In this document: positions 8,352 through 62,285 of the stretch, piece after piece | How the letters are laid out: each line of letters opens with the position of its first letter | How positions within the stretch are numbered: the first letter of the stretch is position 1 | NCBI GenBank assembly: GCA_051313645.2 | Contig: JBNRSN020000003.1 | Coordinates: 222,766,001-222,830,000, forward strand | DNA from: Centroscyllium fabricii | Lineage: Eukaryota | Direction of reading: 5' to 3' | Length of the DNA: 64,000 nucleotides | Made by a program: the position numbers and the translations under genes | The notes under the pieces: model-generated | The model's database searches: none | What the model was told of the DNA's origin: nothing | Seen by the model: only the letters and a program-made list of their open reading frames with translations

Positions 8352-11300
8352 CTATGTGTGCCATTGGGGTGGCCGGATGATGCGGCCGGACCGTGTTGCT
8401 AGTAGTCTCTGGTTCTGCGGTGGAGTGCGGGCGGGTTTTGTTGTGGGAGGGCGACCGCGTTGAGGTGGTTGTGCGGGGACCGTGGTCTCGCCCGCTATCA
8501 CATGTGCCGGCTTGAGCCGGTCTATTGTTACAGTGTCAGTCCTGTTACCCATTTGTAATTCGAAAGCTTTCGCTCCCGCCCGAAGCACTCTGTAGGGGCC
8601 ATCATAAGGTGGCTGTAGTGGAGATCGGTGTCCGTCGCGCCGAACGAACACAAATTTGGCATTTTTAATGTTGTCCGGCACCCGAGCTGCCGGCTCTCCG
8701 TGCCGGGCCTCTGGTAGTGGCTGGAAAGCTCGTGCCGGGTTAGCAAAATCTTTTAAATACTGGTCGGCTGACCAGGGAGCGTTGGGCTCAGCCAGGAACT
8801 CGCCCGGCACCGTTAAAGTTTGGCCGTAGACGAGCTCCGCTGCCGAGGCGTTGAGGTCTTCTTTGACTGCCGAGCGCAGCCCGAGGAGGACCCATGGAAG
8901 GCGGTCGGTCCACGATGCGTCCTTTAGCGTGGCCCGTAGTGATGCCTTCATTGAGCGGTGGAACCGTTCGCATAGGCCGTTCGCCTGTGGGTGGTATGCG
9001 GTGGTTCGGTGTAGTGTTACCCCGAGGTCGCGGGCGATGGCCGCCCATAATGCCGACGTAAACTGGGGTCCTCTGTCGGAGGTGATGTCTGTGGGCACGC
9101 CAAATCGGGCGACCCAGGTAGCGATGAACGCCCTGGCCAAGTCCGTGGTGCCGGTGGCAGTGAGGGGGACTGCTTCTGGCCAGCGAGTGTTGCGGTCGAC
9201 CATGGTCATTAGGTGCGTGTGGCCCCGGGATGGCGGTAGTGGCCTGACGAGATCTATGTGGACGTGGTCAAAACGCCTGGCCGGTACTTTAAAATTTTCC
9301 AGCGGTGCCCTGATGTGCTTATGCACTTTGGAGCGCTGGCAGGCTATGCAGGAGCTGGCCCAGGTGCGGACGTCTTTGCGCAGGCCGCGCCATACGAAAC
9401 GGGCCGATATAAGCTTAATGGACGCGCGGGCGCCAGGGTGGGACAGGTCATGGAGGGTCCTAAAGATATGTTGCCTCCAAGCGTGGGGCACGACGGGCCT
9501 GGGTTGCGGTAACGAAACGTCGCAGCAGATGACGGTGGCAGCGGGGCCGTGCGCGATATTGGCCAAGTGGAGGCCGGGGAGATTAGTTGCTGCGTTAAGT
9601 AGGTCAGGGTCGGCCAGCTGGTCAGCGGCCAGCTGGGCGTAATCGACCGCCATTTGGGCGGCGTTAATGGTGGGGCGTGAGAGGCAGTCAGCAACCACGT
9701 TGTCGCGGCCGGAAATGTGCTGTATGTCGGTTGTAAATTCCGACACGCCCGCGAGTTGGCGCTGCTGCCTGGCCGACCAGGGTTCAGCGACCTTAGCCAT
9801 CGCAAATGTGAGTGGCTTATGGTCGCTGAAGGCTGTAAAGTGGCGGCCCTCCAAGAGGAAACGAAAATGTCGCACCGCCAGATGGAGAGCGAGCAGCTCT
9901 CTATCAAAGGCGCTGTATTTAACCTCTGGGGGCCGGAGTTGCCGGCTGAAAAAGGCCAAGGGCTGCCATGAGTTGCCGGTCCACTGCTCAAATACGGCCC
10001 CGACCGCATGGTCGGAGGCGTCGGTGGTGAGGGCTACTCTGGCGTTGGGCCTAGGGTGGGCTAGGAGGGTGGCGTTTGCCAGGGCTGTTTTAGTTGCGGT
10101 AAAGGCGGTGGCGGCTTCGGCCGTCCACTCGACCGCAGCCTTATTGGACTGCCCGCGGGTGGCCTGGTATAAGGGGGCCATGAGAGCGGCTGCTCCAGGG
10201 ATAAAGCGGTTATAAAAATTAACCATCGCCAGAAATTCGTGCAGCCCTTTAATGGAGTGCGGGCGGGGGAATTCTTGTACCGCCTGAACCTTCGAGGGCA
10301 GGGGTATGGCCCCTGTTTGGGAAATGCGGTGGCCGAAGAAGTCAATGGTCTCGAGGCCGAATTTACATTTGGTGGGGCTTAAGATAAGGCCGTGTTCAGT
10401 AAGGCATTGGAACAGGGTCCTGAGGTGCAGAAGGTGTTCCTGGGGGGAGGTGCTGGCCACGAGGATGTCGTCTAAGTAGACGAAGATGAACTTCAAGTCC
10501 CGTAGGACCGAGTCCATGAGGCGCTGGAAGGCCTGGGCCGCGTTTTTAAGGCCGAAGGGCATCCTAAGAAACTCGAAGAGTCCGAAGGGGGTAATTACGT
10601 CCGTTTTGGGAATATCCGCCGGGTGCACCGGAACCTGGTGATAGCCACGCACCAGGTCGATCTTAGAGAACATCGTACAACCCGCTAATCTGGTGGAAAA
10701 ATCCTGGATGTGGGGTACGGGGTACCTATCTGGGGTGGTGGCGTTATTAAAGCGGCGGTAGTCGCCGCAGGGGCGCCAACCTCCGTCGGGCTTGGGGGCT
10801 ATGTGGAGCGGAGAGGACCAGGGGCTGCTGGAGCGGCAGATTATACCGAGTTGCTCCATAGTGCGGAACTCGGTGCGCGCGATCTCCTGCTTGGCCGGGT
10901 CGAGCCTACGGGCGTGGGCATGGACGGGCGGGCCTGTGTTGGTAATAAAATGTTCCACCCAGTGTTTGGCCTTGCGGGCGGTGAACATGGGGTTGGTTAG
11001 GGCGGGGAACTCTGCCAGGAGCGTGCCGTAGGCATCGGAGTCCCTGGAGCTGAATTGGGCTGCCGCGTGGGCCACGAGTACGGGCCCTGTAGAGCATGGG
11101 ATGGTCGTCATGGTGTTTAAATTCACCAAGCGGCGCCGAGTTACATCGACCAGTAGGCCGTAGGCGCAGAGGAAGTCTGCCCCGAGGAGGGGAGAAGTGA
11201 CCTGGGCCGTTACAAAATCCCAGGTGTACGCGTGGCTTGCAAGGGTTATAGTTAGCTTGCGGGTGCCGTACGTTTTTATATTAGAGCCGTTGGCTGCCGC

Positions 11301-12179
11301 TAGTGGCGGGCCCCGGGTACCTTGTTTGGTTTCTGCAGGGGAGGCTGGCACAATGCTATGCTGCGCGCCTGTGTCGCAGAGGAACCTGAGGCCTGTACCG
11401 CTGTCTGTGGCGAAGAGCAGTGCTCCTGTGTGGCCTACAGACATGGTGGGGGCTGAGTTGGGCCGTGGCTTGAACGCGCATGGCTGGACGCAGCGGTGTG
11501 CTTTGTGTTCGAACCGCGTGTGGTGATAGCACCAGCCGGTGCTAGAGGGACGCGGTTGTCTGGGCGGGCGCGGGGCCCTAGGTTCAGGCGTAAAGTTGTG
11601 CCTGGGGGGTGATTGGCTGCGCTCTACCGATGCGGAGTTAGGGTCGCACGTGGTTGAGCGGGTGCGCTGGGCCTCCATGAGCCTGTCGGCCTCCTCTCCG
11701 AGTTCGTCATCGCTCCGGTGGCCAAGGGCCGCCAAGGCCGGTCTGATGGCGCGGGGCAGTTTGAGGAAGAAGACGGTGCGGAAGAGGGAGGCCGGGTTGG
11801 GTGTGAGTGCTTGCATCTGACCTAAGAGGTCCGATGGGTCTGCGTCCCCGAGTTCGGGGAGGTCGAGGAGCTGGCAGTCGCGCTCAAATTGGGAGGGGGT
11901 AAATCTTTTGATGAGCGCGGCCTTAAGCGTTTCATACCTGCCTGCGCTGGGCACGCGCTGGATTTTTGACCACATCCGATCAATCGTCGTCTGTGGTAGG
12001 GCTGTGAACACCAGGTCGTAGCGGTCGTCCCCGTTGATGCCATGTGTGCGGCAGCTGGCCTCGATGCAGACGAACCAGGCCGCTGGCCGTTGCTCCCAGA
12101 ACTCGGGTAGAGTCAATCCACGCCCGGCTTTCTGTCCAGCTCCTTGCGTTCGTGGAGCTTGGTTTCTTGGGTTAACCAT
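8352..12179 (-). CDS. gag-pol: Uninterrupted Gag-Pol polyprotein, 1275 aa (Gag-PR-RT-RNaseH-IN)
   Basis: LPEFW Gag start, CDTGA protease, MPFGLKNA and YLDD RT, TDAS RNase H, H-H-C-C and D,D,E integrase, PPYDGPY motif. Confidence 0.95.
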   Translation of the reverse strand: MVNPRNQAPRTQGAGQKAGRGLTLPEFWEQRPAAWFVCIEASCRTHGINGDDRYDLVFTALPQTTIDRMWSKIQRVPSAGRYETLKAALIKRFTPSQFERDCQLLDLPELGDADPSDLLGQMQALTPNPASLFRTVFFLKLPRAIRPALAALGHRSDDELGEEADRLMEAQRTRSTTCDPNSASVERSQSPPRHNFTPEPRAPRPPRQPRPSSTGWCYHHTRFEHKAHRCVQPCAFKPRPNSAPTMSVGHTGALLFATDSGTGLRFLCDTGAQHSIVPASPAETKQGTRGPPLAAANGSNIKTYGTRKLTITLASHAYTWDFVTAQVTSPLLGADFLCAYGLLVDVTRRRLVNLNTMTTIPCSTGPVLVAHAAAQFSSRDSDAYGTLLAEFPALTNPMFTARKAKHWVEHFITNTGPPVHAHARRLDPAKQEIARTEFRTMEQLGIICRSSSPWSSPLHIAPKPDGGWRPCGDYRRFNNATTPDRYPVPHIQDFSTRLAGCTMFSKIDLVRGYHQVPVHPADIPKTDVITPFGLFEFLRMPFGLKNAAQAFQRLMDSVLRDLKFIFVYLDDILVASTSPQEHLLHLRTLFQCLTEHGLILSPTKCKFGLETIDFFGHRISQTGAIPLPSKVQAVQEFPRPHSIKGLHEFLAMVNFYNRFIPGAAALMAPLYQATRGQSNKAAVEWTAEAATAFTATKTALANATLLAHPRPNARVALTTDASDHAVGAVFEQWTGNSWQPLAFFSRQLRPPEVKYSAFDRELLALHLAVRHFRFLLEGRHFTAFSDHKPLTFAMAKVAEPWSARQQRQLAGVSEFTTDIQHISGRDNVVADCLSRPTINAAQMAVDYAQLAADQLADPDLLNAATNLPGLHLANIAHGPAATVICCDVSLPQPRPVVPHAWRQHIFRTLHDLSHPGARASIKLISARFVWRGLRKDVRTWASSCIACQRSKVHKHIRAPLENFKVPARRFDHVHIDLVRPLPPSRGHTHLMTMVDRNTRWPEAVPLTATGTTDLARAFIATWVARFGVPTDITSDRGPQFTSALWAAIARDLGVTLHRTTAYHPQANGLCERFHRSMKASLRATLKDASWTDRLPWVLLGLRSAVKEDLNASAAELVYGQTLTVPGEFLAEPNAPWSADQYLKDFANPARAFQPLPEARHGEPAARVPDNIKNAKFVFVRRDGHRSPLQPPYDGPYRVLRAGAKAFELQMGNRTDTVTIDRLKPAHVIAGETTVPAQPPQRGRPPTTKPARTPPQNQRLLATRSGRIIRPPQWHT

Positions 12180-12253
12180 GCTTTCTGTTAAAAGTCTTTG
12201 GCTGGTGGTCCCAGATCCTGCGGCAGCTTATCTTCTCTGGAAGTCGTTCCAGT

Positions 12254-12265
12254 TCGGGGTCACCA
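12254..12265 (-). promoter_or_regulatory. Primer-binding site complementary to tRNA-Trp 3' end
   Basis: TGGTGACCCCGA 1 nt after the 5' LTR; matches the start of the RSV tRNA-Trp PBS (TGGTGACCCCGACGTGAT). Confidence 0.85.
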
Positions 12266-12585
12266 CTGTAGCGCCGGCAGGCCTAGGAACCACACGTGAG
12301 CCAGAGCTAGAGAAAAACACAGCTTTAATCACTAGTACAAAACAAGAAAGAGGCTGAACCACTCGAGACAGGCATATTTAAACGGTCCCGCGGTTGGTGA
12401 CGTCATCGCGTCGGCCGACGTGATGACGTCGTTGCGTCACCCGGATGAGCGGGGCTTTGCTCCGCGGAGTCCCCATGGCGGATTCGATGTCCCCATGGGC
12501 GTACCGCCACAAGCCTGTAGTTTAGGTAACTACTTTTTTGTGTCAATTTTATTAACTAAATTTTTAAAACCTGGAGAGTAACGCA

Positions 12586-13450
12586 GTGAAACCGGATCAC
12601 CTCGACATAAATCCTCAGGTACCCGAAGCTGCTAACGATTTTGAACACTGGTTTGGCCTGGTCGAGGCCTACATGAAGGCCGTAAAGGCTACGAGTGATG
12701 AGGACAAACTCCAGGTACTCTCATCACAGATCAGCGGCCGGGTGTACTCCTTTATCCGCGGCCTCAAGACTTACGAAGAAGCGGTCAAGAAATTAAAGTA
12801 CTGCTACATGCGCCCGGCCCACTCGGTCTATGCCAGGCATGTTCTAGCGACCAGAAGACAACGACTCGGTGAGTCAAATGAACAATTTCTACTAGCGCTC
12901 CAAGCCCTCGCACGGGCCTGCGACTGCAAGGCAAGGACAGCGGAGGAAGAGGCGAACCTCCTAATCCGTGATGCCTATGCTGGAGCAGGACACACTGTCG
13001 CTCGTGTCCGCGATAACGCTTTCTAACGCGGTGGACGGAGCGCTTCGAAAGCTGGATGCGTACGGAGATCACGGCTCCCACTGTACCCCTGACCCCTGGG
13101 CGACACAGCGACGGGCCGAGGCCCCCACGATGGCTGCAGCGACTGCGAAGACACCGGCGGGGCACAGATGCTACTTCTGCAGCAAAGGAAAGCACCCGCG
13201 GGCGCAGTGCCCCGCGAAGAATGCGACCTGCGCGCGGTGCGCGAAGAAGGGGCACTATGCGAAGATATGCAAGTCCAGCCCAGCCTCCACCTCCAGACCC
13301 AACAGCGCGGCCTGCGAGAATAGCAATGCCACTCCATGGCTCCAGGTACGGTGTTGCAGCGCGACCCAGCAGCGGTTAGCCGGGGGTAAATTGCGGGTGC
13401 CTCAATCCCCTTTAACTGTACGGCGGAGGCCGGCCGCGTGCGCGGCATAG
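12586..13450 (+). pseudogene. gag: gag of host A, frameshifted
   Basis: ORFs 12586-13026 and 12968-13450; two zinc knuckles CYFC..HPRAQC and CARCAKKGHYAKIC. Confidence 0.85.
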
Positions 13451-13713
13451 GCGCCGCCATCTCAAATGCGACCGCGACCGGCCATGTAGGACCCCCGGCG
13501 CCGCCATCTTGTCCACCGCGGTCGGCCGCGTGCGAACCAAGGGCGCCGCCATCTTATCTATAGCGGTCGGCCACATGCGAACCACGGGCGCTGCCATCTT
13601 CTGAGTGGCCATCTTGCCAACCGCCCCGGCCGAGGCCCCAGCTAGCGGAGGGCCCCCACTCACACACATACACTTCGGCCTCAGCCACCGTCGGTCAGGC
13701 TAGGCCGCACACC

Positions 13714-16529
13714 TTGTCCAACTCCATGATGAGGATAAAGGTGGACGGGCACGCCACTAACTGCCTGTTCGACACCGGTAGCACAGAGAGCTTTATACAT
13801 CCCGACACAGTGCGGCGCTGCACAGTGCAGACCCAGCCCACGCACTACGAAGTCTCCCTTGCCTCAAAGTCCCACAGGGCGGACGTCACCGGCTACTGCA
13901 GCGTCACGCTCACGATCAGGGACCGCATTTACCGCAACTTTAAGTTGCACATACTCCAGCAGCTGTGCACCCCAGTCTTACTGGGACTGGATTTCCAGTG
14001 TCACCTGAAGAGCGTGACGATGGATTTCGGTGGAACCCTGGCCCCCCTCACCGTCAGTAGCCGGGGCAATCCCAAATTAATGCGGAGCTCGACTTGCGGC
14101 CTGTCCACATTAAAAGTCGAGCCCCCCTCACTGTTCGCCAATCTCGACCCTAAATGCAAGCCCATTGCTACCAAAAGTCGGCGTTACAGTGCAGGGGACC
14201 GGGCGTTATTCAGGTCGGAGGTCGAGCGCATGCTAAAAGAAGGGATCATTGAGGCCAGCACCAGCCCCTGGCGGACCCAGGTTGTGGTGGTTAACATGGG
14301 CGAGAAACTGCGCATGGTCATCGACTATAGCCAGACGATTAACCGCTACACCGGGCTCGATGCCTACCCCCTCCCCCGCATCTCGGATATGGTAAACCAG
14401 ATCGCCCAGTACGAGGTCTTTTCCACAATCGAACTAATGTCGGCGTATCACCAACTCCCCATCCGGAAATCCGACCGCCAGTACACCGCCTTTGAGGCGA
14501 ACGGCCGGCTTTACCACTTCCTCCGGGTCCCCTTCGGTGTGACCAACTGGGTGTCCGTGTTCCAGAGGGAGATGGACCGCATGGTTGACCAGAACGGGTT
14601 GCAGGCCAACTTCCCCCACTTGGACAACGTGACCATCTGTGGCCATGACCAGCAGGACCACGATGCCAACCTCGCCAAATTCCTGCACACGGCGAAACGG
14701 CTGGACCTAACATACAATAAAGACAAGTGTGTCTTTAGTACGGATCGGCTCGCTATCCTCGGATACGTGGTGGAAAACGGGGTCCTCGGCACCGACCCAC
14801 AGCGTATGCGCACCTTGCAAGTGCTGCCCTTACCTCACAACCCCAAAGCCCTGAGGAGATGTCTAGGGTTCTTTTCTTATTACACGCAATGGGTCCCCCA
14901 GTACGTGGATAAGGCCAGACCGCTCCTCAAGGCCGATGTCTTCCCCTTCTCGGCCGATCCCAAACGGCATTCACCCAGATCAAGGAAGACATCATTAAGG
15001 CGACCATGCACGCCGCTGATGAGTCCATTCCCTTCCAGATGGAGAGTGATGCTTTGGACTTCACTCTTGCCGCCACCCTGACCCAGGCAGGCATGCCCGT
15101 AGCGTTCTTCTCCCGGACCCTACAGGGACCCGAAACTCGCCAGTCAGCGGTGGAAAAGGAGGCCCAGGCCATCGTGGAGGCAGTGCGCTACTGGCGTCAT
15201 TACCTGGCCGGTAAGCATTTTACCCTGCTCACTGACCAACGGTTGGTGGCATTTATGTTTAACAATAAACAACGGGGTAAAATCAAGAATGATAAGATCC
15301 TTTGGTGGCGGATCGAACTCTCGACTTACGAGTATGACATTCTTTACCGTCCAGGCAAGCTCAACGAACGCCCGGACGTACTGTCCAGGGGAACGTGCGC
15401 CAGCGCCCTGCTTGACTGGCTGAAGGCCCTCTACGATTGCCTCTGCCACCCGGGTGTCACCAGACTCGCCCACTTCGTCAAATCCCGTAGCCTCCCCTAC
15501 TCCATCACGGAGATAAATGCTATGACCAAAGAGTGCCCTGTCTGTGCCGACTGCAAACCCCAATTCTATAGGCCAGACACGGCGCATGTCATCAAGGCCA
15601 CCCGGCCCTTTGAACGCCTGAGCGTGGACTTCAAAGGCCCCCTCCCCTCCACTGACCGCAACACGTATTTCCATACGGTCATAGATGAGTTCTCACGCTT
15701 CCCCTTTGCCTTCGCCTGCCCAGACATGACGAGCGCAACGGTGATCAAACACTTCACCACGCTGTTCGCCATTTTCGGTCTGCCCAGCTACATCCATAGT
15801 GATCGGGGGTCGTCATTCATGAGCGACGAACTGCGTCAGTTCCTGCTTCAGAAAGGGGTTGCCTCAAGCAGAACAACCAGTTACAACCCCCGGGGGAACG
15901 GCCAGGTAGAAAGGGAGAACGGGACCATCTGGAAGGCGGTCAACCTGGTCCTGAATTCCAGAGGCCTTCCAGTCTCCCGTTGGCAGGAGGTCCTCCCAGA
16001 CGCGCTCCATGCCATCCGCTCTCTGCTGCGTACCGCCACTAACTCCACACCTCATGACCTGTTGTTTTCCTTCCCCTGGAAGTCGACGTCGAGGACGGCA
16101 CTTCCGCTGTGGCTCACAGTGCAGTGACCAGTATTGCTTAAGAAGCACGTCCGCGGCCACAAGACCGACCCCCTGGTGGAACGGGTGCACCTGCTCCATG
16201 CCAACCCACAATATGCTTATGTGGCATTCCCGGACGGGCGCGAGGATACAGTCTCGATCAGGGACCTGGCGCCCGCCGGGAGCACTCGGGCAGAACCCCT
16301 GGTCGAGCCTCAGCTCACCCAGCCACCACCCGCCGAATACTGGCCCCCATATACACACACACTGGGGCCCTCAACACCACCGATCGACAACCCTGGATCG
16401 GACACCGCACCGCTGGCACCGTTGTTGGACAGCTCAATCCCGGTCCTGCAACCAGCACCACCATCGCCGGCACCCCGGCGGTCCCCCAGGCAGACGCGAC
16501 CACCGGAGAGACTGATAACGCAATGCTAA
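13714..16529 (+). pseudogene. pol: pol of host A (PR-RT-RH-IN), disrupted
   Basis: LFDTGS protease, RVPFGV RT, integrase SVDFKGP/HSDRG/GNGQVER; split into ORFs 13714-15081, 15006-16127 and 16134-16529. Confidence 0.9.
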
Positions 16530-16849
16530 TTGATTATGGACATATAGAGATCTTTTCTTTCACCCGAAGGCACGTTCACCCCATCGGACTTGTTTTTAAA
16601 GAAGGGGTGAATGTGGTAATCGTGTAATATACCACTGTAAATAGTTGCTGGTTTGCCTGTACTGTATTGTAGGCCAGGTCAGCCACACGCCTAAATCCTC
16701 CACTCAGGTCGGAGCATATAGGTGAGTGCTGCCCTGCCCCCGCTCATTCTTCACCTTGACCTCATCAGGAGACCAGCTCCATTCTTAGTTAATAAAAGCC
16801 TGTAGTTTAGGTAACTACTCGTCTTTGTGTATTAATTGACGATATGTCA

Positions 16850-37112: not shown

Positions 37113-37411
37113 ACTTTGTCGTAGTGGTTTGGTACAACTGAGTGGCTTGCTAGGCCATTTCAGAGGGCAGTTAAGAATCAACCACATTGCTGTGGGTCTG
37201 GAGTCACATTTTGGCCAGCCTGGGTAATGTCCTTCCCTAATAGGACATTAGTGAACCAGATGTTTTTTTTTACAACAATCCAATAGTTTCATCATCACCA
37301 TTACTGATAAATGTACCATGTGCAACACTTTGTAGCCAAGAGAACTCTACCATCTGGTAAAAGCTGTCTAGCTAATAAATCAGTTTCATGGTCACCATTA
37401 CTGATTGACGT

Positions 37412-38008
37412 TGTGGGGGTCTCGACCCGTCGTGGGGCCGCCCAGGAGTCGAAGGTGGCATGTGGGTTTTGGCTGCTGTACGCCTCTAGTCTGCGGCGTG
37501 CACCATCCACAGCGTTGGAGAGGGAGATCGCCTCTTCCAGGGATAGTGTCTCTTTCTCCAGCAGCCGCTGGCGGGCCTGGGCGGACCTGATCCCCGTTAC
37601 GTAGGTGTCCCGGACGAGGAGATTCGCCTCCTCCTGTGCCGTCCGTGCCTGGCAGTCACAGGCCCGGACAAGGGCTTGGAGCGCCAACAGGTACTGTTCG
37701 TTGGACTCACCAACTAGTTGTTGTCTGGTCGCCAGCACGTGTCTGGCGTAGACAGAGTGGACTGGGCGCATGTAGCATGCCTTCAGTTTCTCCATGGCTT
37801 CTGTGTACGTCTTAGCGTCGCGGATGAAGGAGTATACCCGGCTGGAGATCCTCGATGTGAGAACGTGAAGTTTGTTCCCATCAGTTGTCGCCTTGGCGGC
37901 CTCCATGTAGGCCTCGACGAGACTGAACCAGTGTTCAAATGTATTGGCGGCGGCTGGGTCCTGTGGACTGACGTCCAGCTTTTCGGGTTTCACAGCGCCG
38001 CTCTCCAT
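37412..38008 (-). pseudogene. gag: Truncated gag of host B
   Basis: MESGAVKPEKLDVSPQ...FEHWFSLVEAYM, homologous to host A gag; the ORF runs on into SINE sequence. Confidence 0.85.
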
Positions 38009-38064
38009 TTTAATTTTTAAAGCTAATAAAATTGACGTATCGTCAATAATATAAAGATGAGTAG

Positions 38065-41000
38065 TGTTGGGTTTTGGTGGCGGGCGAAAGAATACCTGAG
38101 GCAGTTAACATTAACACAACAGCTTTATTGACTTCAACTACAGAGTGGTTGCTTTCGCGCTCTTTTCCAGCTAAATATAGCGCTGGCTACGTCATTGCGT
38201 AACAAGGCAATGACGTAAGCACGTCCGCGCGTGTGCGCATGCGCGGAGCGTTTTTGCGTCGGCACTGGCCTCGCGAGAGTAGCGCGCCTCGGGCCAGTGC
38301 CTTCAGGGTCCAAGAGTCCGGTCGATTCGACCACAAGTCCGTGGCAAGCCGCCACATAGCTCCCCCCAGAATCCGACTAGGAGGAATGGACGAGACGTTG
38401 CGGCGGTCTGATAAGTCGGCCGGATCGGCTCCTGCTTGGAGACAGCTGGCGAGCTGTGGTCGGGCGAGCTGGTTGGCCGGCGGGTCGACCACGTGGCGGT
38501 GGGTGGGCAACTAGTGTGGCCTCGCCGGGCTCAGTGTGCGCCGGCTTGAGCCTGTCAATTGACACAGTTTCAGTCCTGCTGCCCACCTGCAATTTGAAAA
38601 ATTTGTCCCCCGCTTGAAGCACCTTGTAAGGCCCGTCGTATGGCAGCTGCAGAGGCCCGCGGTGTGCGTCGTGGCGGACAAAGACGAACTGCGCCTGATG
38701 TAGTCTAGGCGGAATCTGCGCAGTCGTTTCACCATGCCTGGTCACGGGTACCGGTGTAAACTGTTGCGCCGACGTGGTGAAGTCGAGGCGCTGCTGGTTG
38801 GCTGACCAGGGTGTCGTAGCGGCGGCCAGGAATTCGCCGGGTACACGCAGTGGTTGTCCGAAGACCAACTCCGCTGCCGATGCATGAAGGTCCTCTTTGA
38901 CCGCAGATCGGAGACCAAGTAAAACCCATGGGAGGCAGTCAGTCCAGGCGTTGTCTGTGAGGCTGGCCCGTAGGGAAGCTTTCATTGATCTGTGGAATCG
39001 TTCACACATACCGTTGGCTTGCGGGTGGTACGCCGTTGTGTGGTGCAAGTTCACCCCCAGGCTCTTCGCGACGGCAGACCATAATGCTGAGGTGAACTGT
39101 GACCCTCTGTCGGATGTGATGTCAGAAGGCACGCCAAACCGGGCGACCCATGTGGCGATGAAGGCTCTGGCGATGTCCGCAGTGGTGGTGGAAGTCAGCG
39201 GAATAGCTTCGGGCCATCGAGTGGTGCGGTCCACGATAGTGAGCAAGTGGGTGTTGCCTTGTGACGGTGGCAGGGGTCCCACGATATCCACATGGATGTG
39301 ATCAAACCGTCGTGCGGGAACTTCGATCTGACCGAGGGGAGCTTTCGTGTGCTGATGCACCTTTGCCCGTTGGCAAGCTACGCAGGAGTTGGCCCAAGTA
39401 CGCACATCCTTACTAAGGCCGCGCCAGATAAAGCGACTGGTTACCAATTTTATTGATGCGCGGGCGCCGGGGTGGGAGAGGTTGTGGAGCGTCTCGAATA
39501 TGTGCTTGCGCCACGATGCTGGGACGACTGGCCGGGGTTGCGGCAGGGTTGAAGATGAGGCCGTGTTCGCTGAGGCGCGTGAACAGGGCCCTGAGGTGCT
39601 CGAGGTGTTCCCGTTTGGAGGAACTGGCTACTAGGATGTCGTCAAGATAGACAAACAGGAACTTCAGATCCCGTAGGACCGAGTCCATTAGCCGTTGGAA
39701 TGCCTGCGCGGCGTTTTTAAGGCCGAAAGGCATTCGCAAGAACTCGAACAGCCCAAAAGGGGTGATGACCGCGGTCTTGGGGATGTCATCGGCGTGGACG
39801 GGGACTTGGTGGTAGCCGCGCACCAGGTCGACTTTGGAGAAGACTGAGCACCTGGCCAGTCTAGCCGAAAAGTCCTGGATGTGCGGCACTGGGTACCGAT
39901 CGGGCGTGGTAGCGTCGTTGAGGCGACGGTAATCCCCGCAGGGGCGCCAGCCCCCGTCGGGTTTAGGGGCAATGTGGAGCGGTGAGGCCCACGGGCTGTT
40001 GGAGCGGCGGATGATACCCAGCTGCTCCATAGTGGCGAACTCGTTCCGCGCGACCTCTAACTTGGCCGGGTCTAACCTGCGGGCGTGGGCGTGCACCGGT
40101 GGGCCGGTGGTGGGAATGTAATGCTCTACCCCATGTTTGGCTACCCTAGCGGTGAAGGTCGGGTTGGTGAGGGCCGGGAATGCGGCCAGGAGCGTCGAGT
40201 AGGCGTCCGTGGGACGGGCGTGGCACTGTATGGTCAAGCTGGCGGGCTGGGCTGGGGTCGTGTCGCCCGGAATGGTTGTCATGGAGTTGATGTCCACGAG
40301 GCGGCGCCGGGGCATGTCGACCAACAGGCCGTGAGCGCAAAGGAAGTCTGCGCCGATGATTGGCGAGAGTATCTTTGCGGTGAGAAATTCCCACGTATAA
40401 CAGCGCCCTGCGAGCTGGAGCTGTACCGTGCGGTTGCCGTACGTCGGGATGTCGGAACCGTTGGCCGCGGCGAGCGCCGGGCCCCGCGTGCCTGCTTTAA
40501 TTTCGAGGGCGGAGGCGGGCACAATGCTATACTGGGCCCCGGTGTCGCAGAGAAAACGGCATCCGGTTTTGTCATCCGTGACATATAGGAGGCAACCGGC
40601 CTGTCCGACAGACATGGTAGGGGCTGGTGATAGGGCAGGCCTAAAGGTGCAAGGTTGTGCGCACCGTTGTGCCCTGGTGCCGAACCGGGTGTGGTAGTAG
40701 CAGTACCCTGGCTTAGGCGGGTCTGGGGGACGTGGCGGTCGTGTGGGCCTGGGTGCCGGTCCTTGCGACCGCGTGGTGGGAGCGGCTGGATGCGCCGTGG
40801 CGGCGGCCGCCAAATCCGCGGTGTCGTGGCCCCGTTGCCCGTCCATCAGCCTGTCGGCCAGGCTGGCTAGGTCTGCTAGGCTCCGGATTTCGGACGCGAC
40901 GATGGTGGGGCGTATGCTGGAAGGGAGTTGGTGAATGAAAAGCGTGCGGAAGAGGGAACCCGGGGGACTCTCGTCCGTGAGCGAGAGCATGTGGGAGAGG

Positions 41001-41649
41001 AGGCGCGAAGGTGAAGCGTCACCGAGGCCTTGCAGGGCCAGGAGCTGACTGCAGCGCTGGTACTGGGAATCGGTGAACCTTTTAAGTAGCGCGGCCTTAA
41101 GATGTACATACTTGCCCTGTTGAGGTGGGTTCTGCAGCTCTGCCCAGACTTCCGTCACCGTGGAGCTCCCCAGCGAAGTTACCAGGTAGTCGTATCGCAC
41201 TTCCTCTTTGTTGACCCGGTGCAGCCTGAACCGGGATTCAGCTTGAGCAAACCAGGCTTCGGGCTGGTTTGTCCAGAACTCAGGCAGCCGGACCGCGGCT
41301 ATGCTTGCGTCCGCCATCGTTGGGTTCGAAATCCGTTTCGAACGTCGAGGTCACCAATGTTGGGTTTTGGTGGCGGGCGAAAGAATACCTGAGGCAGTTA
41401 ACATTAACACAACAGCTTTATTGACTTCAACTACAGAGTGGTTGCTTTCGCGCTCTTTTCCAGCTAAATATAGCGCTGGCTACGTCATTGCGTAACAAGG
41501 CAATGACGTAAGCACGTCCGCGCGTGTGCGCATGCGCGGAGCGTTTTTGCGTCGGCACTGGCCTCGCGAGAGTAGCGCGCCTCGGGCCAGTGCCTTCAGG
41601 GTCCAAGAGTCCGGTCGATTCGACCACAAGTCCGTGGCAAGCCGCCACA
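38065..41649 (-). mobile_element. CsRn1-clade Gypsy element with internal deletion, nested in the 5' LTR of host B
   Basis: 292-bp LTRs 38065-38356 and 41358-41649, identical by eye; TSD GTAG; PBS TGGTGACCTCGACGT (tRNA-Trp); PPT-like TCTGGGGGGAGCT. Confidence 0.93.
38377..41317 (-). pseudogene. gag-pol: gag-pol lacking the RT end and RNase H
   Basis: ORF 39413-41317 (CHCC Gag, CDTGA, YLDD) joins the integrase region out of frame near 39545; integrase ORF 38377-39447. Confidence 0.9.
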
Positions 41650-42061
41650 GTAGTTACCTTAACTATAGGCTTTTATTAGCTTTACAAAGGAGCTACGCTC
41701 CGGTCGAATATCAGGTACAGAATGAATGGGGGCAGGTCAGACCCCACCTATAAGGCACTCACCTGAGGGGAGGAGTTAGAGGTGTGGCTGACCTGACCCC
41801 GCGACAGTGTCGCAATACAAAAACTGTGTACAGTGCACCCAGCCGCTATACATGCTGGTTTATATTGTGCTTCACTTTTGCAGTGGTAACAAACACTATG
41901 TAACGGTTACCACACTGATAATAGGTTTTTATTCCAGATTTATTTAATTGACTAAATTTAAATTCCCCAGCTGCCATGGTGGGATTTGAATCTCTGGATC
42001 ATTAGTCCAGATCTCCGGATTACTAGTCCAGTAACATAACCACAATGCTACTGTACCCCCT

Positions 42062-49826: not shown

Positions 49827-50335
49827 TGTGGTGAACCATTTAGTGTGGTTCACACTGTGTTATTATTGTATATAGTTTGTGCTAATAAATCTGTTCCTTT
49901 CTGTAAGGACCTGGACCAGCTGACCCCGCCTCCGGGTATGAGTATAAAGGAGGATGCTCCGCCCACCTGACTCTCATTCCGGGCGGACTCATCGCGGACC
50001 AGGTCTAGTTCTTAGCTAATAAAAGCCTTCAATTACTCTTCACCAAAGACTGGCGTAATTGATTTGCGCATCAATTTTATTCAGCTAAGGTTTTTACAAT
50101 GAGCCAGCACGAGGATGAGCAAGAACAGAGCCACCAGCCAGCTGCATCAGATAACTGGAAATCGATCCTTAAACCGAAGACTCTCGACCTCAACCCCCAG
50201 GCAAGAATGCTTCGAACGATTTTGAGCACTGGGTGAGCTGCTTCGAATCGTTTCTGGTGGTGGCCGGAGTCAGCGATGCACACAGGAGACGGGTCCTCAT
50301 CTCCTGCATCAGTGGCAGGGTATATTCGATCATCA
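49827..50335 (+). mobile_element. Gypsy element C: 5' LTR (49827-50073) and gag start, related to hosts A and B
   Basis: TGTGGT...CATCA, TATAAA, AATAAAAGCC; gag LKPKTLDLNPQ...NDFEHW. Confidence 0.82.
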
Positions 50336-53300
50336 AGAATGCCACTGGGGAAGATAAAAGTCATTAATGCAAAGATCATGATTACGCATGGGGCAACCCC
50401 AATTTTCGCCAAGGCACACCCAGTACCCTATGCCATTAGACCAGCAGTGGAGGCAGAACTCAAAATCTGGAAGCAGAAGGAGTACTGTCCAAGGTGGAAT
50501 GGAGCCAATGGGCCACACCCATCGTTCCAGTCATAAAAAAAACACAAAACAAGGACGGAGAAAAGGCAAAGGTGCGCATTTGCGGGGAATTTAAAATGAC
50601 CATTAACCCGGTGTTAAAAATTGTACAGTATCCATTGCCCAGAATTGAGGATATCTTTGCTTCCTTAGCAGGTGGGAAACGGTTCAGCAAGATAGACCAT
50701 TCCCAAGCATATCTACAGATAGAGGTGGAGCAGGATTCCAGGAAACTGCTAACCATCAATACACACAAAGGACTGTACCAGTACAACCGGATGGGTTTTG
50801 GCATCGCATCAGCACCGGCCATATGGAAGAGGACCATGGACTAGGTACTGCAGGGTATTCCAGGGACACAATGCTACCTGGATGACATCTTAGTCATGGG
50901 CAGAACAGATGGGGTACATTTGACTAACTTGGAAACAGTCCTGGGAAGACTTAAAGAGTATGGGCTCAGGGCCAATAAGCAAAAATGTGAGTTTTTCAAG
51001 GATCACATTTCTCATTGTGGCCATGAAATTGATAGCGAAGGGTTACACAAGTCGCCAGACAAGATAACGGTGGTAGTAAAAGCCCCAAGGCCAGAAAACG
51101 TCACGCAGTTAAGGTCATTTCTGGGCCTGATTAACTATTATCACAAGTTTTTGCCCAACCTATCAATGGTTTTGTACCCACTAAATACACTGCTACAGGC
51201 AGGGACACCTTGGAACTGGGAGAAAGCGTGTGAGACAGCTTTCTTAAAAAGCAAACAAATGATCACCTCTAAGGAGGTATTGATGCATTTTGACCCCAGC
51301 CTGCCCATAAAGTTAACGTGTGACGCTTCCCCTTACGGCATTGGTGCCGTACTGTTCCACAAATGCCCAGACGGGTCCGAAAGACCAATAGCATTTGCCT
51401 CTAAGTCCCTCACCATGGCAGAAAAAAACTACGCGCAAATAGACCGTGAAGCACTCAGCCTGGTGTTTCACCACTACTTACACGGCCAGCAGTTTACACT
51501 GATAACCGACCACCAACCATTGGTCTCTATTTTCCACCCAGAAAAAGGGGTTCCCAGATGACTGCACAAAGGCTACAAAGATGGGCACTGTTCTTGGGTG
51601 CACATAAATATACCATTGAACATAAAGGCACTAAGAGGCATGGTAATGCGGATGGATTGTCATGATTGCCCCTACCAGAAACAGGGGAGGTGGGACAACA
51701 AGATCCCCTGGAATTGTACCACCCGGCAATAGTGGAACAGTTACCGATCACTAGCAAACAGATAGAGCGGGAAACAAGAAATGACCCCTGCTTATTGTGG
51801 TAACCGTATTGTGTAATTGATTACCACTGTATTATTGTAACAATAATGGGCCGTGCAGATGTAAGGCACAGCCCTGTAACCTGTGTAATACTGTTGGGAG
51901 CCAGGTCAGCCACACCTCTAACTCCTCCCCCAGGTGAGGCCCTTTATAGGTGGAAACTGACCGAGGCTCCTCATTCCTGTACAGAAGTTCGTTCCGGAGG
52001 GTAGCTCCAAACTTAGCGATTAAAAGCCTTTAGTTACGGTAACTACTCGTCGACTCATTTAATCGGAGATATTGACGATACGTCACTTATCAAAATGTTT
52101 TAATGTCGTAGTGCGAGGATGGTCCAGAGAGGATCTCAAACAATGGTCTGATTACGCCAACAGAAAGGACCAGTTGTCGGTCTGCCGGGGCACGATAATG
52201 TGCGGAGGCTGGGTGGTAATCCCAGAAAAATTACGGAAACAAATCCTGATAGACCTACATGAGGGACATCTGGGCGGGGACAAAATGAAATCCTTAGCCA
52301 GGGCATACGTATGGTGGCCCAGGATCGACAAAGATATTGAGACACTGGCTAGTGAATGCAGCGGGTGCAAAATGGTCCAAAACGCACCGCATCAGGCACC
52401 CTTACACCCATGGGAATGGCCATCGTCTCCATGGCAAAGAATCCATATCGATTTTGCCGGGCCTTTCATGGACACTATTTTCCTCATTGTCGTTGATGCC
52501 CATTCCAAGTGGCCCGAGGTGTTCAGAATGTCCTCCACCACAGCTGAGAGGACAGTCTCAGTCCTCAGAACCATTTTTGCCAGAAATGGTATACAGGAAC
52601 AGGTTTGTTCTGACAACGGAACTCAGTTCGTCTCTGAAGAGTTTAGCTCTTTCCTGAAAAGAAATGGGATCCGACATTACAAATCGGCACCATACCACCC
52701 AGCCACAAATGGACTGGCGGAAAGGTTCATGCAGACCTTCAAAAAGGCTATAAAAGCCATGGGGGGAGGAAAGTTAGAATTACAGCATAAAATAGACAAC
52801 TTCCTCTTTGCATACAGAAATGTGGCACACACAACCACTAACTGATCTCCGGCAGTGTTGTTCTTGAACAGGAGATTGCGGAATCGCCTGGACCTGTTAC
52901 AACCCAACATTCGGCGAGATGTAGAAAACCAAATGTACCGAAAAGCTTCAGACCAGTCAACCAGAAACTTTGATGTAGGTCAGGACATGCTAGTAAGAGA
53001 CTATAGACATGATAAGTGGCAGGCTGGAACAATCAGCCATCGGCAAGGGCCACTATCATACACAGTAGATACACCTGAAGGGCAAATCAGAAGGCACGCT
53101 GACAAAATCGTAAGGGACACTGTGGCCAGTGCTGACATGACCAAACCAAAGACAACATCAAAAAGGGCAATACCCCATGACAACAATTCAGATGAAGAAG
53201 CGCCTGAAGAAGGCTCTCCGGAGGCCGAAACAGACGGCGAGTCAACAAAGACTACCTCATCAGTGGTCATCACAAGACGGTACCCAACGAGAGACCGCCG

Positions 53301-55341: not shown

Positions 55342-57654
55342 GTTGTGAGATGGCCCGGCCCAATGCTATACTTCATGGTCTAGGGATTTAAGTTTACTTG
55401 TGATAAGTCAGTTAGATTTTGTGCTAAAAAACATGGATTTGTCCATTAATTTGAATTAAGCAAAGTAAATAACATAGCAAGGAAGATATTTAGTGCTAAT
55501 TTCATAGCAACTTTGAAATAAGTAGAAGTAGATTGCATTGTGCGTTACTTTTCCATGTATGATATTGATCATAATGTACACAAGTTATTCAAGCAGCCTC
55601 ACTGGAGGAAATATATCATTGGCAACCATAAAATATCCCCAATATGTAGAGCTCAAATATTTAGATGGATAAATTTGTCTTCACAGTAGAAGACACAAAA
55701 TACATTCCAGAAATAGTGGGGAACAAAGGATCTGGTGAGAATGAGGATCTGGTGAGAATGAGGAACTTAAATAAATTATTATTAGTAAAGAAGTAGTACT
55801 GGAGAAATTGATGGGACTAAAAACCGACAAATCCCCTGGACTTAATGGCTTACATCCTACAGTTTTAAACGAGGTGGTTTCAGAGATAGTGGATACATAG
55901 ATTTTGATCTTCCAGAATGCCCTAGATTCTAGAACGGTTCCCGTGGATTGGAAGGTAGCAAATGTAACCCTATTATTCAAGAAAGGAGGGAAAGAGAAAA
56001 AAGAGAACTATAAACCAGTTAGCCTGACGTCAGTAGTAGGGAAGATGCTAGATTCTAATATTAGGGATAGTGTAGAAATCGACGGATTTCTAATGAAAAA
56101 CGGGGTCCACACAGAGGAACGATTCAAAAACGGGTCTTTACTCAATGCCAACATTGCAGGTTCTGCCTGGGCAGCCCTGTGTCCAATGTGATGACGTCAT
56201 CACGTTGGCCCGTGTTTACCTGCGCTCTTAAAGGGGCCACGCCCCGTATATACAAAGATTACATTCACAGTACAGTAATGCCTAACACCATGGTCGAATG
56301 TCCGGCTGGGGTCCAGATATGCCAGCTTGAGTCGGTCGACTGAGATGTGGTCGGACTTACCACCGACGTCGACGGTAAACGTTTTGTCTCCCGTTTCCAA
56401 CACGCGGAAAGGGCCGGTATATGGGGCCTTGAGCGGATCCCTGTGAATGTCATGGCGGATGAAGACATATTCGGCATTGTGTAGCTCCTTAGGCATGTGG
56501 AACCTCTGCAGCTTGTGATGAGAAGTAGGAAGCGGAAGAAAACTTCTGGCAGCCTCCTGATGTTGGGCTAACTGAGCAGATGCGGACCACGGCTCCATTG
56601 CAGTTGGGATGAAATCACCCGGAACCCTCAGTGGATGCCCGTACACCAACTCCGTCGAGGAAGAGTGAAGTTCTTCTTTGGGGGCCGTGCAAAGACCCAA
56701 CAGGACCCACGGCAGCTTGTCAACCCATCCTGCGTCCTGGAGACTGGCCCTCAGCGCGGCCGTCATCGACCAGTGGAAACGTTCGCAGAGGCCGTTCGCC
56801 TGCAGGTTGTAGGCTGTGGTGTGTTGCAGTTTGACGCCAAGCCCCTGGGCCACCACGTTCCAGAGTTCCGAGGAGAACTGTGGTCCCCTGTCCAGTGAGA
56901 TATCGGCGGGAACCCTGAAACGGGCGACCCATGCGGAGATGAACGCCCTGGCCACGTCTGCTGAAGTGGTGGATGAGAGTGGGAAAGCCTCTGGCCATCT
57001 CGTGTTGCGGTCGACCATGGTGAGGATGTGTGAAAAACCATGGGAGAGTGGAAGAGGACCTACTAAGTCGACATGGACGCGGTCAAAACGACGCTCCGGA
57101 ACCGTAAAGGAGGCTAGCGGTGTCTTGATGTGTCGTTTGATCTTGAACCTTTGACAGACTACGCAGGTGTTGGCCCAGTCTCGGATGTCCTCATGCATGC
57201 TGTGCCAGACGAACTTCACTGACATCAGCTTCTGGGAGGTCTTCATGCCGGGGTGTAACAACCCGTGGATGGCGTTGAAGACTTTGCGGCGCCAAGCGAC
57301 CAGCACAATGGGTCGAGGATCTTGTACTGAGACATCGCACAGCAGTGTGGTGCCCACTGATTGAAAGTGGACGTCAGATAGCTGGAGACCTGTGACAGCT
57401 GTCATGTACGTCTGTACTTCTGGGTCTGCATTTTGAACTGCCTCCATGAGCGCATAATCGATGCCCAAATGAACAGTGTTGATGGCCGCGTGGGAGAGGC
57501 AGTCTGCCACAAGGTTCTCCTTACCGGCCATGTGTTGTATATCCGTGGTAAATTCGGATATGTAGGTCAGCTGGCGCAGTTGTCAGGCTGACCATGGTTC
57601 GGCAATTTTGGACATAGCGAAGGTGAATGGTTTATGGTTGACAAAAGCCGTGAA

Positions 57655-58615
57655 TTAATGATCTAGATAAGGGAACTAGATATACTAGCTCCAGGTTTGC
57701 AGACGACACAAAGCTGGGTGGGTGTGTGTGCTGTGAGGACGATACTGAGATACTCCAAGATGATTTGGACAGGTTGGGTGATTGGGCAGAAGCATGGCAG
57801 ATGGAATATAACGTGGATAAATGCGAGGTTATCCACTTTGGTGTCAAAAACAGAAAGACAGACTATTATCTGGATGGCAATAGATTGGGAGAAGGGGAAG
57901 CGCAATGAGACCTGGGTGTCCTTGTGCACCAGTCGCTGAAGGTAAGCATGCAGGTGCAGCAGGCAGTGAAGAAGGCAAATCGTATGTTGGCCTTCATAGC
58001 GAAAGGGTTTGAGTACAGGAACAAGGATGTCCTGCTGCAGTTTTACAGGGCCTTGGTGAGACCACACCTTGAGTACTGTGTGCAGTTTTGGTCGCCTTAT
58101 CTGAGGAAGGATGTTCTTGCCATGGAAGGAGTTCAGCGAAGATTCACAAGGCCGGGATGGCAGGAATGACATATGGGAAGAGATTGGGTCAATTGGGCTT
58201 ATACTCGCTGGAGTTTAGAAGAATGAGAGGGGATCTCATAGAAACTTATAAAATTCTGACAGGTCTAGACAAACTAGATGCAGGAAGAATGTTCCCGATG
58301 ATCGGAGAGTCCAGAACCAGGGGTCATAGTCTAAGGATAAGGGGTAAGCCATTTAGGACATAGATGAGGAAGAATTTCTTCCAGAGAGTGGTGAACCCAT
58401 GGAATTCTCTACCACAGAATGTAGTTGAGGCCAAGTCATTAAATATATTCAAGAAGGAATCAGATATATTTCTTAGAGATAAAGGTATCAAGCGATATGG
58501 GGAGAAGGCAGGTACATGGTATTGAGTTTAGATGATCAGCCATGATCTTATCGAATGGCGAAGCAGGCGCGAGGGGCCGAATGGCCACTCTTGCTCCTAT
58601 CTTCTATGTTTCTAT
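57655..58615 (+). mobile_element. 5'-truncated CR1 inserted in the RNase H region
   Basis: CR1 RT 3' half and tail; GTGAA duplicated at 57650-57654 and 58616-58620. Confidence 0.9.
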
Positions 58616-60054
58616 GTGAAGGGCCATCCCTCAAGGAAGAAACGGAAATGGCGGACAGCCAGGATAAGGGTGAGCAACTCTCGGTCAAACGTGCTGTAAG
58701 CCCTCTCGTTCTGCCGCAGTTGCTGGCTAAAGAAAGCCAAAGGTTGCCAGGCACCATTCACCCACTGCTGCTGGACTGCACCTACCACGTAATCCAACGT
58801 GTCGGTGGTGAGGGCTATGGCGGCTCCTGGTAGAGGGTGCGCCAACATGGTTGCATTGGCCAAGGCGTTTTTAGTGTTAGCGAACGCTTGGGTCATCTCC
58901 TCCATCCAGTTGACCGGGTTCTTGCCAGTCTTGCCCTTGAGTGCTTCGTACAGGGGCTGCATGAGTAATGCTGCCTTGGGCACGAAATGGTGATAAAAAT
59001 TCAGCATGCCCAGAAATTCCTGCAGGGCCTTCACGTTTTGCGGGCGTGGAAAGGATGTCACTGCCTCTACCTTTGCAGGTAAAGGCACCGCTCCCTCCGA
59101 TGTGATGCCCCAGAAAATCAATTTGGTGCAAGCCAAACTGACACTTGGCCGGGTTGATGATGAGGCGTTGGAAAAGGGTGCGCAGGTGACTGAGATGCTC
59201 TGCCTTGGTCAGACTGGAAATTAGGATGTTGTCTAGATAGACAAAGAGGAACTTGAGGTCCCGCAGCACAGAGTCCATCAGGGGCTGGAAAGCCTAAGCG
59301 GCATTCTTCAAGCCGAACGGCATTCTCAAAAAATCAAAGAGGCCGAACGGGGTGCTGACTGCGGCCGTCTGGACATCCTGTGGGTGCACTGGGACCTGGT
59401 GGTAGCCCCGGGCAAGGTCGACCTTGGAGAAGATAGTATTACCTGCCAAATGGGCAGAGAAATCTAAGATATGAGAGATCGGGTACCGATCCGGTGGGGT
59501 GGCATCGTTGAGATGCCGATAGTCACCGCAGGGCCGCCATCCTCCGCCAGGTTTTGGGGCGATGTGAAGAGGTGAAGACCAGGAACTATTCGACCGGCGA
59601 ATAATCCCCAGCCGCTCCATCATGGCAAACTCAGCTTTCATGACCGCCATCTTGCCAGGTTTGAGGCGCCGGGCCCGCGCGTAGACCGGGGGGACCGTTA
59701 GTGGAAATCTGGTGTTCACTCCATGTTTGGCGGATGAGGAGGAGAAGGTGGGCCGCGTTAGGCCGGGGTATTCACCGAGAAGGCGAGCAAATTTGTCGGG
59801 AGTGGGAAAAGCACAGGAGACGGTGTGGGACGTTGTGTTACTGCGGTAACACGGTAGTGAATGAAATGTTGCCGCGTTGATCAGCTGCCGATTCTGGACA
59901 TCGACCAGTAGGCTGTTGGCGCACAGAAAATCCATGCCGAGGAGGGGCTGGGAAACTTACCCGTGACGAAATCCCAATGGAAGCTCTGGCCACCGAAGCA
60001 CGCTTCTACTCACCGCCTGCCAAAGGCTCCGATTGCCCCGCCATTGGCCGCATC

Positions 60055-60406
60055 TTGTTATGAAAGTGGGGCCACTACTACAAGGCACACAACTGACCAT
60101 CCAATGTAGTGCATATTACCAAGAGTAGATTTTGGGACAGGGCCACTGGCAAGGCTTGGAAGCTAAGCAGAGCCAGGCCTGGTTAGTACTTGGAGGGGCG
60201 ACCACCAGGGAATGCCAGGTACAGAAGGTCACGAAAGGAGCCCCGGGGAGGGGCGGTTGGCTGAAGATTGTCGGAATGATGGAAAGATGGAATGGCGGCG
60301 CGCACAGACGCAGCGGCTTTGCTGGACTCTTGGGAGCTTGCAAGATCACATTTAGTTGTTCCTGTACTTGTACATTGTATAATGACAATAAAAAAAAGTT
60401 GAAGTT
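60055..60406 (+). mobile_element. SINE-like insertion with an internal 5S rRNA-derived segment and LINE-type tail
   Basis: 60155-60222 resembles the 5S internal control region; ends TGACAATAAA..GTTGAAGTT; removing it restores the protease frame NYGPKL|DAANG. Confidence 0.7.
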
Positions 60407-62285
60407 GAGTTTGGGTCCGTAATTCCCCGTCTGGACATCGAGGGTGGACGCGGGGAGAATGCTGCACTGCGCACCGCTGTCACAAAGAAACCGCGCTGCT
60501 GGCCGCCATTGCTGCAGCAGGGTGCTTGTTAATCCCGGTCTGCTGTGGCCGCAGCGTCAGATGGACGGCTTTTAATTTGGATAGAAAGTGCAGGGAGGGC
60601 GGCAGCGCCTCGCCTTCGCGGCAAAATGCGCATGATAAAAGCACAGGCCAGCAGCCTGACGAGCTGGGGCGGTGTCCATGGGGGCTGAGAGCCTCATGGC
60701 GACACAGTAGTGCTGAGTGCCGAGTGACTACGAAGATTTTATCGGCCTCAACAGTGAGTACTGCGCATTCGGTGATTGAGGAGCCAGCCAGGGCGGCTTG
60801 TACTTGCTCGGGTAGCTGCCTGAGGAATAGCTCGCGGAATAGAAAGCATTCCAGTTCAGAACCCAGGAGTGTGAGCATCTGGCTCATTAACTCCGAGGGC
60901 TTAGAGTCCCCGAGCCCGGGTATCGAGAGTAGTCAACGAGCGCGCTCTGCTTTGGTGAGCCTGAAGACCTGCAGCAATCGCGATTTAAGTGCATCATACT
61001 TGCCCTCCGCAGGGGGATTTTCCAGGAGGCTGACGACCCGGGAGGCTGTGGAGTTGTCGAGAGCGGAGACCACGTACAAGAATTTGGTCTGGTTTGCCAC
61101 GATGTCTCGCAGGGCGAACTGGGCCTCAACCTGGACAAACCACACGGGCGCCTGTGTGAATAGTCTGTGAAAACGTTCACAATACTCGGGGTCACCACTG
61201 TAGAAATCGACGGATTTCTAACAAAAAAACGAGGCCCACACGGAGGAACGATTCAAAAACAGGTCTTTACTCAATGCCAATGTCACAGGGACTGCCTGGG
61301 CAGCCCTGTGCCCAACGTGATGATGTCATCACATTGGCCCGCGTTTTCCCATGCTCTTAAAGGGGCCACACCCCGTATATACAAAGATTACATTCACAGT
61401 ACAGTAATGCCTAACACCATGGTCGAATGTCCGGCTGGTGTTAGGACTTTGTTAAAGTGAATTATATACAACTGAAAGTGGACCTGCCACAATGTCATAT
61501 CAGGACACTTAGAAAATCATAATATGCTTGGGCAGAGTCAACACGGATTTATGAAAGGGAAATCATGTTTGACAAATCGTAGAGTTTTTTGAGATTATTA
61601 GGCTGGATAAGGGGGAATCAGTGGATGTAGTGTATTTGGATTTTCAAAAAACATTCAATAAGGAGCCACATAAGAGGTTATTGTACAAAATTAGGCCTTG
61701 TGGGATTGGGGGGTAATTTATCAACATGTTTTGAGGTTTGGTTAACAGACAGAAAACAGAGAGTAGGAATAAACTGGTCATTTTCAGGTTGACAGGCTGT
61801 AACTAGTAGGGTACCACAAAGATCAGTGCTTGGGTCTCAGCTATTTACAATCTGTATCAATGACTTAGATGAGGGGACTGAGTGTAATGAATCTAAGTTT
61901 GCAGATGATACAATGTTAGTGGAAAAGTAAGTTGTGATGAAGACACAAGGAAGCTGCAAAAGGATTTGGACAGGTTAAGTGATTGGGCAAGAATGTTGCA
62001 GATGGAATATAATGTGGTGAAATGTGAAGTTATTCACTTTGGTGGAAAAAATAGAAGAGCAGAATATTTTTTAAATGGTGAAAGATTGGGAAATATTGGT
62101 ATTTAGAGAGACCTGGGTGTCCTTGTACATGAATCATGCAGGTACAGTAAGCAATTAGGAAAGCAAATGTTATGTTAGCCTTTATTACAAATGGATTAGA
62201 GTATAAGAGTAAAGAAGTCATGCTGCAATTATATCGGGCCCTCTTAGAGCGCTAAAACTGAATTTCGTGGGAGGTGAGAATGATT

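Follow-up and report, generated by a model that had tools for sequence, protein, structure and literature searches.

What primes reverse transcription in a retrotransposon whose sequence directly behind the 5' LTR complements a segment of that same LTR? The question is raised by an element (host B) on the minus strand of the window, the stretch of 64,000 nucleotides of Centroscyllium fabricii DNA that was analysed here. The original prediction held that 14 nucleotides of its LTR, containing the poly(A) signal, pair perfectly with the nucleotides that follow the LTR. The two segments, 41684-41671 and 38031-38018 on the minus strand, were found to be perfect reverse complements, with coordinates and sequences exact, and the gag ATG of host B lies at 38008, 9 nt past the stem (about 10 nt in the earlier estimate). 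The features of host B are as follows.

38033-41914, minus strand: 5' LTR of host B (TG...CA), split by a guest element; target duplication at 41919-41915
41747-41752, minus strand: TATA-like box, 82 nt upstream of the junction, putative in function
41720-41725, minus strand: initiator-like TCATTC, with the transcription start predicted from motifs at 41723, which is 53 nt upstream of the junction
41671-41684, minus strand: candidate primer arm in R, terminating in AATAAAA, recognised by complementarity and covariation
41655-41670, minus strand: RCC hairpin, immediately adjoining the arm; a cut is predicted between positions 41671 and 41670
38065-41649, minus strand: guest, a CsRn1-like Gypsy element with a DUF7041 gag, a TGG primer site and the duplication CTAC
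38032, minus strand: one-base A spacer after the LTR end (A in 163/163 leaders)
38018-38031, minus strand: putative self-complementary primer-binding site (PBS), perfect complement of the arm
37406-38008, minus strand: start of the host B gag, cut short by an internal deletion that joins it to the last bases of the 3' LTR

The guest, which has two identical 292-bp LTRs and a 4-bp duplication, is inserted in the U5 of the host and is younger than the host B element. Host B carries the 5-bp target duplication ATCAG at 41919-41915 and 37405-37401, and its 3' part is gone through the internal deletion. Its LTR boundaries are those implied by a solo LTR at 51796-52085, as had been supposed, and they also match the 3' LTR of sister copy A and the ATCAG duplication. 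The second arm begins one A past the terminal CA of the LTR, which is the position expected of a PBS, and the polarity suits priming, as a 3'-OH at the AATAAAA end would copy U5. Since the guest sits between them, the two arms of host B are 3.6 kb apart, and the pairing was therefore tested on uninterrupted copies. The relatives of host B within the window are these.

7876-16849, plus strand: sister copy A, with both LTRs, a broken gag-pol, the duplication TTGAG and a 13-bp stem
50011-50089, plus strand: uninterrupted sister leader, probably copy C, with the arm at 50011-50024 and the primer site at 50075-50089
51796-52085, plus strand: solo LTR of subfamily S, arm end ATTAAAA, duplication CTTAT, lying within a Mag-like pol

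In the probable copy C, arm and primer site pair with a one-base bulge. Copy A is interrupted at 8065-12511 by a guest inserted exactly at the AAAAGCC junction, and a TGG primer site is present in all three guests of the window. The third CsRn1-like guest (56071-61441) is older, with LTRs 90% alike, lies within a LINE and is itself interrupted. The CsRn1-like family of the guest in copy A has an insertion hotspot directly after ATAAAAGCC (window 8060-8069, and genome-wide), with 93 exact junctions and with 266 within 30 nt against 1 in the control, numbers that are not normalised to guest copy number. At the hotspot loci read (L468-L491) an LTR of this guest type follows in 24/24, and a host-clade LTR, from several subfamilies, was placed upstream by BLAST in 19/24; two are non-host sites with the same motif.

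For the pairing across the clade, 351 distinct leaders from six subfamily groups were compared. We set aside 26 as interrupted, deleted or damaged in their anchors, and 325 were uninterrupted and scorable. Pairing was observed at 12-13 of the first 13 positions in 303 of these 325. The claim that the stem differs among subfamilies yet stays paired proved to be real covariation, with position 8 concordant in four families. Arm and PBS agree at this position in 77/83 leaders of family A, 71/76 of E, 82/85 of F and 45/48 of B, counts that are inherited within subfamilies and stand for a handful of events, not hundreds. The swaps are from T-A to G-C and from C-G to G-C, mostly double transversions with no G-U intermediate, and the 3' LTR arm mostly follows the state of the arm and PBS; such swaps would suit copying better than stepwise compensation. 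The arm of the solo LTR (ATTAAAA) implied a different PBS, and this was carried by 28 of the 30 matches to the LTR end, the remaining two not being 5' junctions. None of the 325 leaders has a tRNA-type TGG within the 8 nt that follow the LTR, so that a conventional PBS was not found in intact relatives, in line with the prediction that there is no tRNA primer site.

The pairing also extends beyond cartilaginous fishes. The environmental set consisted of 61 loci on metagenome contigs, 35 of them extending to the gag start. Perfect stems of 9-19 bp, unrelated in sequence and above all 200 shuffles, were found in 26/35 of these leaders, and all 26 end at AAA|RCC and start at CA-A-TTT. The other nine had no significant stem (four are mismatched; five lack an anchor or are too short). 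What is invariant is TAAA|RCC together with the position one base after the LTR end. A second hairpin, starting at RCC, gave a summed stem of 97 over 22 lineages against a shuffle maximum of 78. Several environmental families share a TTACCT motif 35-50 nt upstream of the arm (L035, L040, L044, L089).

Our reading is that these elements prime themselves from their own R segment, to which, taking all versions together, we give a probability of about 0.94. Among the versions we incline, at somewhat better than even odds, to one in which the 5' copy of R is the primer: it would anneal to the 12-14 nt that follow the 5' LTR and, by prediction, be cut at AAA|RCC, with no tRNA site involved. The complementarity of arm and primer site, which change together across families, is its first step and is observed directly. 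Folding predicts that the helix forms in the leader (the pairing probability of the local 5' arm is near 1) and stacks on the second hairpin that starts at RCC. By analogy with Tf1, RNase H would then cut at the helix junction and leave a 3'-OH with the polarity to copy U5. The primer would be the capped 5' end of the RNA, about 53 nt, of which only a part is paired, and it would normally be trimmed. Plus-strand synthesis would finally copy the primer, a step for which fossil by-products speak, so that the LTR would rewrite the primer site in every cycle; on failure, an overrunning strand would jump to the wrong place and its product would still be integrated.

The expected primer length depends on the promoter motifs. 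Relative to the junction, TATA sits at -80 to -83 in 5/6 families and an initiator-like A at -52/-53 in four, which would put the arm some 40 nt downstream of the transcription start. Several points weigh against the 5' reading: its start site, cut and poly(A) site are all predictions, nine environmental leaders lack a significant stem, and the TATA/Inr spacing is unrecognisable in most environmental relatives. The motifs also bear on an explanation that we consider improbable, namely priming of the Tf1 type, with a second start site at the arm itself and a capped primer of 12-14 nt. It would agree with the modal stem of 13 nt, with the Inr-like CATT that precedes the junction by 17-18 nt in families A, E and G, and with a C at position 13 that resembles the C following the 11-nt site in 13/13 sushi-type copies, as a cap-templated base would. 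But there is no TATA 30 nt before the arm, the conserved TATA and Inr lie at -80 to -83 and -52/-53, and stems reach 16-19 nt in relatives. Two further features were seen in this region: an inverted repeat around the TATA box of family B (window 41804-41727), and a splice-like motif, CAG|GTGAGT, just upstream of TATA in families A and B.

Position 13 of the primer site carries a possible footprint of priming. There the PBS shows A>C, with unchanged arms, in 8/83 leaders of family A, 11/76 of E and 4/85 of F. The carriers are scattered, the nearest neighbour being a carrier as well in 0/8, 3/11 and 0/4, and when the roughly 210-230 A columns of each family are ranked, position 13 comes within the first 4-6. 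Among 100 matches listed, 18 had the change (counted by eye), with 0-5 at neighbouring positions. Family B shows the hotspot only weakly (1/48; position 14, 1/100). We infer that this is the trace expected from an error at the far end of the primer. Its distance of 12 nt from the cut, rather than 53, counts against the 5' reading and disagrees with a cap at -53; a primer end trimmed to 12 nt, or a second start site, would account for it. A T>A change at primer-site position 11 (9/76, family E) was dropped, as only 1 occurred among 100 matches listed.

If the R segment is the primer, a plus strand that overruns the PBS continues as LTR complement, and this was the logic of a search for fossil by-products. 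In family B, 79 genomic places were found in which the LTR end runs past the primer site into LTR complement, against 0 in the control; they compare with at least 5,897 normal junctions with intact leaders, counted for one subfamily group in the C. fabricii genome. Thirty of the 79 were read. In 13 the complement extends for 19-54 nt and then jumps, often to an internal site, at 0-5 nt of microhomology; nine terminate around the LTR start; and eight continue for 75-1,283 nt into the PPT and the internal 3' end. Perfect 5-bp target duplications flank L500, L512 and L514, and L494 has a 4/5 match; these are therefore integrase products, and the fossils with duplications are integrated by-products of reverse transcription. 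Fold-back of an integrated LTR at the DNA level was rejected as their source, as the upstream flank is unmirrored in 5/5 testable cases and target duplications are present. Two breakpoints, at 50-54 and 52-55 nt (L508, L500), enclose the predicted start at 53; none of the short products extends further, and L508 jumps directly to the gag ATG. The short and LTR-length classes could also arise if a plus strand that stops exactly at the primer site snaps back, a point against the 5' reading; the read-through class could not. We also observed small palindromic insertions consisting of an LTR and an inverted partial LTR with two U3 ends (L500, L493, L498, L501, L505, L513), of which L500 carries a 5-bp duplication.

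The read-through fossils need a plus-sense template of the order internal end-PPT-U3-R, most simply the 3' end of the RNA, reached either by mis-transfer through R or by direct copying of a 3'-end primer. The latter route belongs to another version of self-priming, in which the 3' copy of R is used: the 3' end of the genomic RNA, cut at AAA|RCC behind the hexamer, would pair with the primer site, and the whole RNA would be the primer. The genome would then loop end to end, and first-strand transfer would be a fold-back. We treat this version as a tentative possibility. It would directly yield the 8/30 fossils that cross U3 and the PPT and take in as much as 1.3 kb from the 3' end of the internal region, whereas the 5' reading has to take them as mis-transfers to the RNA 3' end. 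In none of these fossils is the first LTR preceded by that internal 3' sequence, and such products, carrying one integrase end only, should be under-counted. It would also agree with the hexamer, AATAAA or ATTAAA, which lies in the arm of 16/22 lineages and ends at the junction. Against it, the local 5' arm would need to be displaced, the two breakpoints at the predicted start are left without a reason, and a plus-strand 53-nt complement of R would mis-transfer to the RNA 3' end anyway. If it were true, LTR elements would have, in a widespread animal Gypsy clade, a third way of priming in addition to tRNAs and to self-priming from the 5' terminus.

In HIV-1, the poly(A) hairpin holds AAUAAA in a helix near the 5' end that is local to R/U5, and priming is by tRNA-Lys3; in the host clade, by contrast, the strand paired to the hexamer is the primer site itself. 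A stem that serves to hide the 5' poly(A) signal (or the start of gag), with an unknown host RNA or protein as primer, is highly improbable in our view. Masking would explain why the hexamer falls within the arm in those 16 lineages and why the local stem can be formed by the 5' LTR only. Yet the stem is retained in the 6/22 lineages whose arm reads GTTAAA(A) or TTTAAA (three of these have AATAAA/ATTAAA further downstream), and masking is therefore not the common denominator. The stem also sits exactly at the primer position, with the polarity for priming and perfect Watson-Crick pairs; a host primer could not follow family-specific changes; and the fossils have plus-strand DNA running on into LTR complement. 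The original prediction of a poly(A)/PBS pairing thus stands as regards the pairing, while the poly(A) signal as its conserved core does not, being absent from the arm in 6/22 lineages. The stem is best read as a self-primer and not mainly as a poly(A) mask, and in families with the hexamer in the arm, concealment of the 5' poly(A) signal is probably incidental.

As judged from its sequence, the host is a Gypsy lineage without a chromodomain and with a YLDN reverse transcriptase (RT). The domain order is protease-RT-RNase H-integrase, and the Ty3/Gypsy hallmarks of TG...CA LTRs, a PPT and a target duplication are present, the duplication being of 5 bp in 24/33 full-length copies scored. A chromodomain on the integrase was seen in 0/8 full-length relatives, and PF00385 is absent from the entries of all 120 homologs examined. 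The RT motif is YLDN in 85/121 proteins and YLDD in 19 (window counterpart in the region 14619-14630). Close homologs come from catsharks, rays, corals, a sea anemone and a nematode. In a tree of RT-RNase H sequences, the 34 host-clade rows form their own long branch (SH-aLRT 100), with seven chromodomain rows separate (SH-aLRT 99) and the CsRn1-like guests and one Mag-like row also apart; the tree sampled only four groups and does not give the order among them. Nesting of the host among chromoviruses was rejected on this separate branch. The clade probably belongs to Cigr-1 of Ty3/Gypsy, which it resembles in element architecture, with compact single-ORF elements of 4.5-5 kb, short LTRs and a gag with a double zinc knuckle. 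Cigr-1 has been reported from tunicates, molluscs and annelids, and the accessible parts of these reports mention no primer site for it (PMC6238403, PMC8556966). Troyka/Kuafuorterviruses, described in sections of PMC11673190 with an xADD RT motif and a 3-bp duplication, were rejected, as the host clade has YLDN and a 5-bp duplication.

Tf1 is the element in which self-priming was demonstrated, and the same has been put forward for relatives of Tf1 and for a few plant lineages; the text available from PMC6317226 and PMC4600332 gives Tf1/sushi and Tj1 as known cases. In Tf1, according to the consulted parts of the sources, the first 11 bases anneal to the PBS and RNase H frees the primer by severing base 11 from base 12 (PMC7175516); a copy of the PBS is made in single-stranded plus-strand DNA, and the RT adds nucleotides without a template (PMC11042837). 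The host clade resembles Tf1/Tf2, Tj1 and Tf1/sushi, as far as excerpts of these papers describe them, in having no tRNA site, a primer site that complements the element's own LTR and a one-base spacer (PMC7175516, PMC4600332, PMC11042837, PMC6317226). It differs in that the Tf1/sushi primer is the first 11 nt of the RNA, whereas the host-clade arm has 12-19 nt, lies about 40 nt inside the predicted transcript, at a distance of 30-65 nt from the end of the LTR, terminates at TAAA|RCC and in most cases includes the hexamer; the chromodomain is absent and the RT lineage is separate. As a control, 13/16 chromodomain elements of the same genome have an 11-bp stem whose arm begins about 29 nt downstream of TATA; 407-461 nt separate the end of this arm from that of the LTR, and it is separate from the poly(A) signal. 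In the young sushi-type chromoviruses L452-L463 and L466 the 11-bp self-primer is of textbook form, and the next base is C in 13/13, as a cap-templated base would be.

For Tcn1 (Gypsy) and for TAR/Houba/Osr-1 (Copia) of plants, self-priming was predicted from complementarity between the post-LTR sequence and the 5' LTR (PMC6317226); these are other lineages, known by prediction only, and the portion of PMC6317226 seen mentions neither a poly(A)-signal junction nor fossil by-products. The layout of the host clade was not found in the literature searched, and prior mention in Repbase, GyDB, Butler 2001 or the original Cigr-1 paper is possible; its primer is not described in the available parts of PMC3601003, PMC6238403, PMC8556966, PMC12440569, PMC12859917, PMC10886601, PMC13524379 and PMC11673190. 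What emerges is a separate and very abundant animal lineage with a layout of its own, which brings the primer, the predicted cut site and the poly(A) signal together at one junction. The genome preserves dated by-products, so that sequence analysis can test the mechanism, as can in vitro work with short RNAs. Annotation tools that demand a tRNA site will miss or mis-score these elements, which would presumably also escape silencing by tRNA fragments. Elsewhere in the window, minisatellite arrays occupy 850-1970 and 3720-4606, with C-rich units of about 19 nt and G-rich units of 43-53 nt.
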